Virus record (IMG/VR): IMGVR_UViG_3300032331_002826
Location: 1-64,000 of that record
From: a virus
Direction: 5' to 3' (one strand)
DNA: 64,000 bases
In this document: positions 59,181-62,893 of the stretch, in pieces
How positions within the stretch are numbered: the stretch's first letter is position 1
Layout: each line of letters opens with the position of its first letter
Made by a program: the position numbers and the translations under genes
The notes under the pieces: model-generated
Databases searched by the model: none
Seen by the model: the letters and a program-made list of their open reading frames with translations, nothing else
Told to the model about the DNA's origin: nothing

Positions 59181-59571
59181 TGGTGGACGTGGCGGGATTC
59201 GAACCCGCGTCTTCAAAAATATATTCTACATCAGACTACACGCTTATGAATTTTTTGACCGCACAACAACCATAATCTAAAATCCCAAACTTATGATTGT
59301 TTATGTTTGTAAGTTTCAACAACATATCCAAACTATATGTCATCAAGCCTGATAGAGTACACCCAACACAATTATCAGACATCGTTGTATTGGATGTGCA
59401 GCAACTTAAGCTGCGAGTAGTGCAACGTCTTCTCTCTTAGAAGTGAAGTCGTAGCTGATTACTTTGCTTTTCTTAGCATTTATTTTTTGAACAGATGATT
59501 AAAGAGGCCGACCGTTCATCCTCTGCGTGCCTAACATGAACTAATCTTTGAATCGAGACCAGTACACGCCC
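59181..59571 (-). ncRNA. ssrA: tmRNA
   Basis: 5' GGGCGUG pairs with 3' CACGUCC-A-CCA with G3:U70; T-arm GCGGG-UUCGAAU-CCCGC; resume context AUAAAU-GCU; tag AKKSKVISYDFTSKREDVALLAA-stop (59477..59406). Confidence 0.93.
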
Positions 59572-60394: not shown

Positions 60395-60470
<76 letters not shown>

Positions 60471-60500: not shown

Positions 60501-60603
60501 AATTGAAAAAAACACAAACCGTGCTATTATACGCTAAAAAGCAATGCGGCACATGCGCCCAAACCCTTACGGAATCCTCCTATCGGGTGTTTGTGTTTTC
60601 AAT
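60501..60603 (-). ncRNA. Unassigned structured RNA (about 100 nt, three-way junction)
   Basis: Closing helix AAAACACAAAC/GUUUGUGUUUU; inner CCCGA..GUAA-loop..UUGGG and GUGC/GCAC arms. Confidence 0.45.
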
Positions 60604-60764: not shown

Positions 60765-61121
60765 TTAATCTCCTTTTTGGAGTCGAATACTATCTTCATC
60801 AAAATGTTGTGTACTGAATTCAAACAACTCAGTGTCTTCAATTGCATACATTTGATGTTTCAGTCCAATTGGAATATGAAAATGGTCACCCTTGTTTAAT
60901 GCAACAGATGTAGACTTATTAATATCATCGTGCCAACCATAATACAATATAATCTTTCCACTTTGGACATAAAATGTTTCATCCTTAATTTTGTGATAGT
61001 GCCAACTACACTTTCGATCCTTCACAAGATAAAGAATCTTGCCACAATACTTTTCATTGTTGACAATCCACTTTTCAAATCCCCATCCCTTCGGTACAAT
61101 ATGTAATCTTTGGTAATCCAT
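60765..61121 (-). CDS. Cupin (mannose-6-phosphate isomerase type II C-terminal-like)
   Basis: PKGWGFEKWI, SWHYHKIKDETFYV, IPIGLKH, EFST. Confidence 0.8.
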   Translation of the reverse strand: MDYQRLHIVPKGWGFEKWIVNNEKYCGKILYLVKDRKCSWHYHKIKDETFYVQSGKIILYYGWHDDINKSTSVALNKGDHFHIPIGLKHQMYAIEDTELFEFSTQHFDEDSIRLQKGD

Positions 61122-61128
61122 AAATTAA

Positions 61129-61416
61129 TTTGACACAGCCGTAGCCGATGTTCTGTTCTATTCCTACATTTATCTCAATATCTCTATTGGTCATCCATTA
61201 AAGATGACTGCTCCAACCTTGTCCTGATAACGTGCAGCACTACACTCGGACACTTTAGGATTACTGCTAATTTGTGGTGTTAACGAGGGGGACTATCACA
61301 ATGAAGTGGTCTTAGCCGATTTGGACTCGGTTTACAATGCCCTCTCCCAATCATCTGCTGTGCAGCATCGAACTTCCTCTAGGATATTATCCCAGCGTAG
61401 GATCGCTTATGTCAAA
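61129..61416 (-). ncRNA. rnpB: RNase P RNA (short, type A-like)
   Basis: P1 UUUGACAUA-A-GC/GCUGUGUCAAA; P2 UCCUAC/GUAGGA; P3 CUGGGAU/AUCCUAG; CR-I GAGGAAGUUCGAUG pairs (P4, bulged U) with CR-V ACAGAACAUCGGCUA; CR-IV AGAUAAAUG; GAGA-capped P18. Confidence 0.85.
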
Positions 61417-61438
61417 ATTTCAGTCAGTGTTTGATAAA

Positions 61439-61657
61439 CTATTGCTTTGCAAACAAATGCAGATTCTCTGCTTTCAACGTATCCATTTGTTTTTCTATGA
61501 CTTTGCGTTTTGTAACGTCATTTGTTTTCTCCCATTTTACCACAAGCGAACTGTATTGCTTGCGATACTTTTCAATGGTGAGTTTTTTGGTTACGTTGTC
61601 TGCGCCAAATGCATTCAATGCAAGTGTCAATACGATTGTTGCTAGAATTGTTTTCAT
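61439..61657 (-). CDS. Small secreted protein (signal peptide)
   Basis: MKTILATIVLTLALNAFG-AD...; the longer track start overlaps tRNA-Pro. Confidence 0.65.
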   Translation of the reverse strand: MKTILATIVLTLALNAFGADNVTKKLTIEKYRKQYSSLVVKWEKTNDVTKRKVIEKQMDTLKAENLHLFAKQ

Positions 61658-61684
61658 ATGTTCAACAATACATATTGATGAAAG

Positions 61685-61760
61685 TGGTCGGAGTGGAGAA
61701 TTTCGCAATCTCAACCTCCTGTCTCCAAAACAGGCCGTCTACTTTTGACATTACACTCCG
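61685..61760 (-). tRNA. tRNA-Pro(TGG), atypical (A18, G55, A37)
   Basis: CGGAGUG/CACUCCG-A-CCA; CCUGU-UUUGGAG-ACAGG; T-loop UGCGAAA. Confidence 0.85.
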
Positions 61761-62280: not shown

Positions 62281-62356
62281 TGGTGGACCAGGTGAGAATC
62301 GAACTCACAACAGATTGCTTGCAAAGCAGTCTCGCTCCCTTAGAACATGCCAGCCC
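62281..62356 (-). tRNA. tRNA-Ala(TGC), divergent second copy
   Basis: G3:U70, UU-UGC-AA, CCA; irregular D-arm. Confidence 0.85.
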
Positions 62357-62364
62357 GTAAAATT

Positions 62365-62451
62365 TGGTGGGTGTAGAGGGACTTGCACCCCCATGCCTTT
62401 CGGCAGCTCGTTTTAAGTGAGCCGTGTATACTAATTCCAAACCATACACCC
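62365..62451 (-). tRNA. tRNA-Leu(TAA), A18/G55
   Basis: CU-UAA-AA; variable arm UGCC-GAAA-GGCA; T-loop UGCAAGU. Confidence 0.88.
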
Positions 62452-62551: not shown

Positions 62552-62635
62552 TGGTCGGCATGATAGGACTTGCACCTACACCCCTTTCGGGACGAGCTTC
62601 TAAGACTCGCATGGCTTCTATTACATCACATGCCG
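62552..62635 (-). tRNA. tRNA-Leu(TAG), A18/G55
   Basis: CU-UAG-AA; variable arm UCCC-GAAA-GGGG; T-loop UGCAAGU. Confidence 0.88.
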
Positions 62636-62734: not shown

Positions 62735-62808
62735 TGGTCGGCCACGTCAGAATTGAACTGACTCTCTATGCTCCCAAAGCACACGTGCTACCGTAACACT
62801 TGTGACCG
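62735..62808 (-). tRNA. tRNA-Pro(TGG), second copy
   Basis: UGUGC-UUUGGGA-GCAUA; C1-G72; A73-CCA. Confidence 0.88.
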
Positions 62809-62815
62809 ATTAAAA

Positions 62816-62893
62816 TGGTCGGAGTGACAGGATTTGAACCTGCAACTTCTTGCTCCCAAAGCAAGCGCTCTAGCCAAGTTGAGCTACACTCCG
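62816..62893 (-). tRNA. tRNA-Pro(TGG), canonical third copy
   Basis: CUUGC-UUUGGGA-GCAAG; canonical arms; CCA. Confidence 0.95.

Follow-up and report, generated by a model that had tools for sequence, protein, structure and literature searches.

RNase P RNA, which trims newly made tRNAs at their 5' ends, is regarded as a universal cellular ribozyme. In Escherichia coli the RNA (M1, encoded by rnpB; type A, Rfam family RF00010) is about 377 nt long. A natural reduced form is the type-T RNase P RNA of the Thermoproteaceae (Pyrobaculum; RF02357), which keeps the catalytic domain (C-domain) and has lost nearly all of the specificity domain (S-domain) (PMC3579882, PMC13462272). A study of engineered RNAs reports that the type-A C-domain by itself is active in vitro both in the presence and in the absence of the C5 protein, that it needs a P6-like contact, and that P18 is dispensable in it (PMC5839562).

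Here we describe an RNA of this kind in viral DNA. The window (the whole stretch analysed, positions 1 to 64,000 of IMG/VR virus record IMGVR_UViG_3300032331_002826) carries on its minus strand, at 61129-61416, a structured RNA of 288 nt. The RNA exists and is under strong structural selection. The stretch probably encodes the phage's own RNase P RNA subunit, descended from type A, which would process the phage's precursor tRNAs (pre-tRNAs) and the precursor of its transfer-messenger RNA (pre-tmRNA); a probability of roughly 0.78 is assigned to this reading as a whole. Catalysis, discrete transcription, the substrates and the protein partner are what we infer. A sequence-only reading of this DNA had proposed an RNase P RNA with an intact C-domain and a reduced S-domain, and this identity is supported by covariation, conserved motifs, a chain of homologues, the tailed-phage nature of the contig and the position of the RNA among tRNA and tmRNA genes.

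Structure and covariation of the RNA

Homologues were retrieved by scanning public collections with three short patterns from conserved regions (CR) I and V, followed by a filter on an upstream CR-I. The 43 loci that passed this filter stand for 32 different RNAs with lengths from about 200 to 574 nt; related loci are referred to below by L numbers. Among the CR-V pattern matches in viral contigs, 19 of 27 belonged to the family. In metagenomes the fraction was 24 of 120 and in cellular genomes 0 of 120, in both cases among the matches listed. Among these matches the RNA family is confined to viral-type contigs.

To count covariation, between 32 and 37 different homologues found in viral and metagenomic contigs were aligned with Infernal. 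Two half models were made from the subgroup to which the window RNA belongs, R1 for the 3' half and R2 for the 5' half; all loci were re-aligned with Infernal and the long-range pairs were merged. In the 3' half (P15, P16, P17, an extra hairpin and P18) 94.8% of the alignment cells were paired, compared with 59.0% in shuffled and 31-45% in slid controls, and both sides changed in 23 of 24 pairs. The corresponding values for the 5' half (P3, P5, a two-part P7 and the base of a variable hairpin) were 95.3%, 69.4% and 30-55%, with changes on both sides in 19 of 22 pairs. After merging of the halves, P2 was paired in 97.4% of cells (68.2% shuffled) and P4 in 98.8% of 247 cells (85.1% shuffled). 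The variable dinucleotide of P4 is complementary in 42 of the 43 loci and occurs in nine combinations. Covariation among homologues, which had been proposed as a check on the sequence-only reading, was found in every C-domain helix and in both pseudoknots.

Conservation of at least 95% over 32-36 distinct sequences was found for CR-I, the two adenosines of the junction J5/15, the GGU on the 3' side of the P15 internal loop (L15), the GC after P15, the AGA..AAUG of CR-IV, CR-V, and the G and A of the P18 GNRA loop. These are the positions of functional importance in bacterial RNase P. The invariant blocks alternate with helices that change in a compensatory manner, and length varies only at the P3 loop, the middle hairpin and P18.

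The ends of the RNA, 61129 and 61416, were computed as the outer ends of P1. When the P1 and P2 strands were searched for independently, the ends and the length came out as in the sequence-only reading. The blastn conservation limits are 61127-61419, and R1 and R2 jointly span 61142-61416. The 5' strand of P1 (UUUGACAUA-A-GC, with a bulged A; 61405-61416) pairs with the 3' strand at 61129-61139, with a computed contiguous run of 9 bp; this pairing is also found in relatives, where covarying versions occur (GAC/GUC to GUC/GAC, ACA/UGU to UCG/CGA). P2 pairs UCCUAC (61397-61402) with GUAGGA (61162-61167), complementary at all six positions, and is present in at least 14 sequence versions across homologues. 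P3 is a hairpin of 7 bp with a 3-nt loop (61379-61395; alignment A7, helix 1). Changes on both sides occur in six of its seven pairs, pairing is present in 95.7% of cells, and some relatives carry insertions.

CR-I, which includes the 5' strand of P4 with its bulged U (GAGGAAGUUCGAUG; 61366-61379), is at least 95% conserved over 32 distinct sequences, and the CR-I string of relatives was aligned by Rfam to the CR-I of RF00010. It forms P4 with CR-V (AUAGAACAGAAC-AUCGGCU-AC; 61141-61161), which reads ACAGAACAUCGGCUAC on the minus strand. The 5' strand of P5 (CUGC, 61362-61365) pairs with GCAG at 61264-61267 (A7, helix 2); each of the four pairs shows changes in both strands, with pairing in 98.4% of cells. 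Ten complementary 4-mer versions of P5 exist in the family, and (C/U)AA follows wherever the 3' strand of P5 is located. In the window RNA this trinucleotide is UAA (J5/15, 61261-61263), the equivalent of the canonical CAA.

The P6 pseudoknot joins CAGCA (61356-61360) to UGCUG (61235-61239) in the loop of P17, with 95.8% of cells paired in the aligned rows. P6 is nearly invariant in the subgroup of the window, but at least ten complementary versions are present family-wide (for example CAGCA/UGCUG, AAGCA/UGCUU, CAGAA/UUCUG, AAACC/GGUUU and GAACAG/CUGUUC). The mean complementary run is 4.90 when each member is compared with its own arm and 3.95 with the arms of other members. The P15-P16-P17 arm lies at 61212-61260, and its helices covary with 86-98% of cells paired (alignment A5, helices 1-3); L15 GGU is at 61216-61218.

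Between P15 and P18 there is an extra hairpin (GUCAUC/GAUGAC, 61190-61208; A5, helix 4) that is not part of the canonical type-A structure and was not named in the sequence-only reading. Each of its six pairs varies on both sides, with pairing in 97.8% of cells. P18 (CAAUA-GAGA-UAUUG, 61176-61189; A5, helix 5) ends in a GNRA loop, and each of its five pairs changes on both sides. CR-IV, in the joining region J18-2 (AGAUAAAU, followed by G; 61168-61175), reads AGAUAAAUG on the minus strand, and its conserved AGA..AAUG matches the RF00010 consensus AGAugAAUG. All C-domain landmarks of the sequence-only reading (P1-P5, P6, P15-P17, a GAGA-capped P18 and CR-IV) are present on the minus strand, and the helices among them covary.

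Some relatives have large insertions at P18, and the smallest ones, such as L016, lack P18 altogether. In L048 (L048:5198-5771) the P18 insertion exceeds 300 nt and holds an open reading frame (ORF) at L048:5230-5556 on the minus strand. An HNH-like motif was recognized in this ORF by eye only (C..C...DFDH.....CANCH), and no Pfam match was found at E <= 0.01. The insertion resembles a gene of the homing-endonuclease type placed within a helix of the ribozyme.

The folding energy of the single sequence is ordinary (minimum free energy z = -0.74 for the RNA strand and +0.18 for its complement), so the structural support comes from the comparison of homologues and not from thermodynamics. The minimum free energy fold contains a local hairpin CUGC-ACA-GCAG. 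It was rejected because a homologue with CUCC..GCAG cannot form it, whereas P5 covaries.

Relation to bacterial RNase P RNA and the reduced specificity domain

The link to canonical RNase P RNA is provided by relatives that Rfam models recognize. The gathering threshold of RF00010 (RNaseP_bact_a) is 100 bits. The RNA of L021, from a complete 168-kb phage genome with terminal repeats, matches RF00010 end-to-end at 191.1 bits (E 2.8e-60). Weaker RF00010 matches are found in L094 (69 bits, E 6.8e-19), L026 (63.5 bits, E 5e-17), L116 (60.2 bits, E 6.8e-16), L032 (58.6 bits, E 2.3e-15) and L144 (42 bits, E 1e-9). The archaeal model RF00373 (RNaseP_arch) detects the 203-nt RNA of L016 over exactly its P1-P1 span (46.8 bits, E 4.4e-10). 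It also gives a full-length match of 25.3 bits (E 0.0025) to L045, a member of the window's own subgroup that scores 126 bits with R1. In the reverse direction, the half models find the intermediates at Rfam's coordinates: R1 matches L026 (47.5 bits) and L144 (40.3 bits), and R2 matches L032 (32.1 bits) and L116 (29.9 bits). The intermediates bear the family signature, in which GAGGAAGUUCG replaces GAGGAAAGUCCGG and GGCUA replaces GGCUUA.

A further member was found in LR756508.1, a published 484-kb huge phage whose record is unannotated. This genome was reached by portal similarity, independently of the CR-V pattern. Its 226-nt RNA (76010-76235; L273:1501-1726) matches RF00010 at 49 bits (E 7.9e-15) and R1 at the same place, and a tRNA-Ser follows directly. 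No match to R1 or RF00010 was found in Microcystis phage Mel-JY01 or Flavobacterium phage immuto, and blastn of the window RNA and the L021 RNA gave no match among GenBank phages.

Because of this chain of intermediates and the one-to-one match in architecture and motifs, descent from a bacterial type-A RNase P RNA can be taken as established with near certainty.

The S-domain of the window RNA is reduced to a remnant at 61268-61355, in which helices 3-5 of alignment A7 covary. The two P5 strands are 94 nt apart, somewhat more than the approximately 85 nt given by the sequence-only reading. Between them are the P6 strand, a two-part P7-like helix, two unpaired purines, one hairpin and a conserved junction GUUAACA (61278-61284; GUUAAYA in the family). 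The P7-like helix (GAU/AUU and UGG/CCA) covaries, with GCC/GGU, CGG/CCG and AGG/CCU in relatives. The P8, P9, P13, P14, CR-II and CR-III modules are absent from the window RNA, and the sequence-only reading was correct in not finding the last two. The hairpin (61285-61344) varies in length and sequence among relatives: it is a stem of only 5 bp in L009, whereas in L004, L012 and L014 it exceeds 130 nt. Even where the RNA cores are 83-95% identical, the hairpin sequences are unrelated, and it is therefore not a conserved substrate-reading module.

P7-P12 are kept in L021 only. In L116 and L032, the two alignments inspected, Rfam aligns the C-domain alone and jumps the specificity region via local ends. 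The family thus records a stepwise loss of the S-domain from a bacterial ancestor, parallel to archaeal type T and independent of it. The GNRA loop of P18 is conserved though P8, its usual receptor, is missing; a candidate receptor for this loop is the conserved junction in what is left of the S-domain. P18 is reported to be without effect in the engineered C-domain (PMC5839562), so that its conservation in the phage RNAs is a puzzle.

Gene neighbourhood, possible expression and candidate protein partner

The window is taken from a 74,203-bp record with an estimated completeness of about 28% (CheckV). Its large ORFs encode, among others, a portal resembling T4 gp20 (phrog_213, E 3.9e-61), a major head protein, proteins of the baseplate wedge and SbcCD. 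Portal, head and baseplate proteins identify the contig as that of a large tailed phage, uncultured and of freshwater type. The nearest known portals are those of Flavobacterium phage immuto (53% identity), Microcystis phage Mel-JY01 (52%) and a 484-kb uncultured huge phage.

The RNA fills the gap between a cupin-domain ORF (60765-61121; PF07883) and a 91-aa ORF (61439-61714). Around it are 13 tRNA genes and one tmRNA gene, which share its minus-strand orientation, so that the proposed ribozyme does lie among its presumed substrates, as the sequence-only reading had stated. The 3'-CCA is encoded by all 13 tRNA genes and by the tmRNA gene of the window, and by 96% of the 209 distinct tRNAs adjoining related RNAs. 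In all eight related loci that were scanned whole, the RNase P-like RNA is inside a tRNA array. Genes for tmRNA accompany it in the window, L021, L024, L094 and L016. Loss of the S-domain could not be associated with odd T-loops: non-canonical T-loops make up 16.3% (34/209) near reduced RNAs and 19.2% (5/26) near L021, the control sets being small.

The arrays have several other features. The tmRNA gene of the window (59181-59571, minus strand; 133 bits) encodes the tag peptide AKKSKVISYDFTSKREDVALLAA and its own CCA. Permuted tmRNAs of the two-piece type are found in arrays with reduced RNase P RNAs at L024:6669-6934 and L094:4527-4781 (RF04321, 127 and 85 bits, both above the cut-off). The L016 array contains a GOLLD RNA (RF02032, 198 bits, above the cut-off) at L016:10629-11095, some 100 nt upstream of the mini RNase P RNA of 203 nt, and a tRNA match lies inside the GOLLD span (RF00005, 58.8 bits; L016:10957-11028). 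The same array, to which L016:12532-12733 also belongs, contains a group I intron (64.9 bits) and a tmRNA.

Among the tRNA genes of the window, tRNA-Leu(UAA) (62365-62451) and tRNA-Leu(UAG) (62552-62635), both on the minus strand, have the T-loop UGCAAGU in place of UUCRANY. This variant was also seen five times among the tRNAs of related loci. There are two different tRNA-Ala(UGC) genes (60395-60470 and 62281-62356) and two different tRNA-Pro(UGG) genes (62735-62808 and 62816-62893). The second gene of each pair has an unusual D-arm sequence, and the second tRNA-Ala was detected by ARAGORN only and not by Rfam at the gathering threshold. A non-coding segment of the window, 60519-60597, adjoins the RNase P-like RNA at its 3' end in one metatranscriptome contig of a relative (X9), at a distance of 13 nt and with the cupin ORF skipped. 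The cupin ORF is therefore an insertion into an otherwise contiguous block of RNA genes.

Part of the stretch is present in 24 metatranscriptome runs from 21 studies (freshwater, riverine and aquaculture). Four runs from four studies were aligned. One contig of 218 nt falls entirely inside the RNA (3 differences), another of 167 nt matches it over 140 nt (61181-61320; 1 difference), and two longer contigs come from relatives with other neighbouring genes. These contigs demonstrate presence in RNA libraries only and are a weak hint of expression. Empty flanks and contig pieces starting at 61138 were considered as possible transcript ends and rejected, as the different neighbours of the relatives and the limits of the contigs explain them. 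A single strong, near-consensus sigma-70-like match was found, within the RNA across P1-P3 (61386-61415, minus strand; TTGACA, an 18-nt spacer and TG-GATAAT, 11/12). It was rejected as an own promoter because relatives with other P1 sequences have no such match, and it is therefore probably a coincidence.

A search for RnpA (PF00825) was negative for the record of the window and for four related viral records (two complete, one 89% complete), and the two complete phage genomes carry RNAs of this kind. This result fits the borrowing of host RnpA that the sequence-only reading suggested. Since none was found, the RnpA of the host is the simplest and most likely candidate for a cofactor; a new phage protein or protein-free action would also be possible.

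Proposed function and comparison with known systems

The RNA would be transcribed together with the minus-strand tRNA/tmRNA array and would adopt the fold of a complete catalytic domain, with a P1-P4 core (in which P4, with its bulged U, is the active-site helix), P5, P6, P15-P17, P18, CR-I, CR-IV and CR-V. The ribozyme would then trim the pre-tRNAs and pre-tmRNA of the phage by removing their 5' leaders. As the S-domain, which normally stacks on the elbow formed by the T- and D-loops, is a stub, the grip on the substrate would probably shift to the acceptor stem, to pairing of L15 GGU with the 3'-CCA, and to a protein cofactor, most likely host RnpA. L15 GGU faces the tRNA 3'-CCA in this model; the motif and the encoded CCA are both present, and the pairing itself is predicted. 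The phage RNAs keep P6, and the activity of the engineered C-domain alone (PMC5839562) offers a precedent for function without an S-domain. A more specific version is put forward tentatively, with more doubt than confidence: tRNA maturation would be private and CCA-anchored, carried out by a ribozyme without elbow recognition through L15-GGU/CCA pairing, with host RnpA, an as yet unknown phage protein or no protein, and the ribozyme would have co-evolved with tRNA genes nearly all of which encode CCA.

Several results weigh against assigning this RNA to a functional phage RNase P. Rfam gave no RNase P match for the window RNA, either at the gathering threshold or at E <= 10 on 801 nt and on 296 nt, and an RF00010 search of the whole record was likewise negative. 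The covariance-model check proposed with the sequence-only reading hence failed for the window copy and succeeded for several relatives, at up to 191 bits; the negative part is outweighed by the other evidence. The profiles R1, R2 and R3 had no match on the rnpB genes of five bacterial genomes. When scored directly with filters off, these rnpB loci reach 9-13 bits, compared with 16-25 bits from the 18-nt retrieval pattern alone; the background loci of this reverse test contain the retrieval pattern and are a poor comparison set. As there is no direct profile match either way, the link to canonical RNase P runs only via the intermediates and the shared architecture. Homologues were retrieved with the CR-V pattern and filtered on CR-I, so both motifs are shared by construction, and covariation was counted on structure-fitted alignments of mutually related sequences. 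The contigs from RNA libraries could represent DNA carry-over. At the low completeness of the record, the phage of the window may still have an RnpA of its own.

The same evidence bears on other explanations. An RNA with the reduced S-domain described here, unrecognized by Rfam and with large insertions at three sites in its relatives, might be a decaying, non-functional remnant of a captured host rnpB. This is very improbable: at least 32 distinct sequences keep all C-domain pairings by compensatory change and their motifs at 95% or more, and the insertions are at helix tips only (P3 loop, variable stem and P18), a pattern that points to purifying selection on the structure and not to decay. 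The family also had no member among the 120 cellular-genome matches listed. Another explanation is a mimic that binds host RnpA or pre-tRNAs without productive cutting and so diverts or throttles host tRNA maturation during infection. The phage records have no RnpA gene, so that such an RNA and the M1 RNA of the host would be rivals for the host protein. CR-IV, CR-V and P3, where RnpA binds in canonical enzymes, are conserved, and the loss of the S-domain is reported to lower the catalytic efficiency of engineered RNAs (PMC5839562). A sponge or hijacker of this kind nevertheless has no need of catalytic and positioning elements, yet the bulged-U P4, the J5/15 adenosines, L15 GGU and P6 are kept with compensatory changes across diverged lineages, and the gene is always among CCA-encoding tRNA genes, as suits an enzyme beside its substrates. 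This explanation is accordingly considered quite unlikely.

A slightly less unlikely alternative, though still an improbable one, accepts an active ribozyme and holds that its main substrates are not ordinary tRNAs but the tmRNA precursor, tRNA-like elements or GOLLD-type RNAs, with the S-domain lost because the elbow is irrelevant to them. The co-occurrence of tmRNA genes with the RNA in five arrays and the GOLLD RNA with its internal tRNA match next to the L016 mini RNase P are in its favour. Yet tRNA genes are the most numerous neighbours, with 209 distinct tRNAs near reduced members, and the conserved GGU together with the universally encoded CCA suits acceptor ends of the tRNA type. This alternative overlaps with a phage RNase P that matures tRNAs and does not exclude it. 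A phage-encoded RNase P RNA that processes the pre-tRNAs and pre-tmRNA of its own array is therefore the preferred reading.

If the CCA-anchored version is true, a huge phage would mature 30 or more tRNAs and a tmRNA regardless of the state of host RNase P, and the 200-nt members would rank with the smallest RNase P ribozymes that occur naturally and would be the first of viral origin. A search of the literature, with subscription journals outside its coverage, found no report of a virus-encoded RNase P RNA. The main surveys of huge and jumbo phages and two tools for finding rnpB make no mention of one, and RNase P is absent from the text of the huge-phage paper checked for LR756508.1. The novelty, judging from the sequences, would be a virus-encoded RNase P RNA of type-A descent with a nearly absent S-domain.

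A virus-borne lineage would add a core piece of tRNA maturation to the translation genes of huge phages (tRNAs, tmRNA, synthetases and ribosomal proteins). The graded series from near-canonical to minimal 200-nt forms shows which parts of bacterial RNase P RNA are dispensable. It makes testable how the C-domain functions without the S-domain and with what the P18 loop docks when P8 is missing. Standard pipelines miss such genes, so that huge-phage genomes are under-annotated; one published 484-kb genome has an unannotated copy. Compact and possibly orthogonal RNase P/tRNA pairs could also be of use in tRNA expression systems.

Among known systems, type A of E. coli shares, in the same order and topology, P1-P5 with the bulged U of P4, the P6 pairing with the loop of P17, P15-P17 and a P18 capped by a GNRA loop. 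CR-I, CR-IV and CR-V are near the RF00010 consensus, and the AA of J5/15 and the L15 GGU, which in type A pairs with the tRNA CCA, are the same. In contrast to type A, the phage RNA is without P8-P14, CR-II and CR-III, and a P7-like stub and one variable hairpin are what remains of the S-domain. Its CR-I has one A fewer and GUUCG instead of GUCCG, and its CR-V ends in GGCUA instead of GGCUUA. It also has the extra P15-P18 hairpin, measures 288 nt, is encoded by a virus and has no RF00010 match. The RNA of LR756508.1 has the same architecture as the window RNA but belongs to a sub-lineage with the CR-I GAGGAAGCUC and the P4 strands UCUAGA/UCUAGG, and it is shorter (226 nt).

Archaeal type T is similar in overall size to the smallest phage members (L016, 203 nt). 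It differs in being archaeal, in its proteins (Rpp30, Pop5 and L7Ae) and in lacking the bacterial P6/P15-P17/L15-GGU arrangement, and permissive scans listed no RF02357 match for the window or its relatives. The engineered E. coli C-domain ('CP RPR'; PMC5839562) is also a type-A C-domain without an S-domain and depends on a P6-like contact. It is a laboratory deletion with lower efficiency, whereas the phage RNAs are natural and selected, and they keep the junction GG-GA...GUUAAYA-CCA and the GNRA loop of P18.

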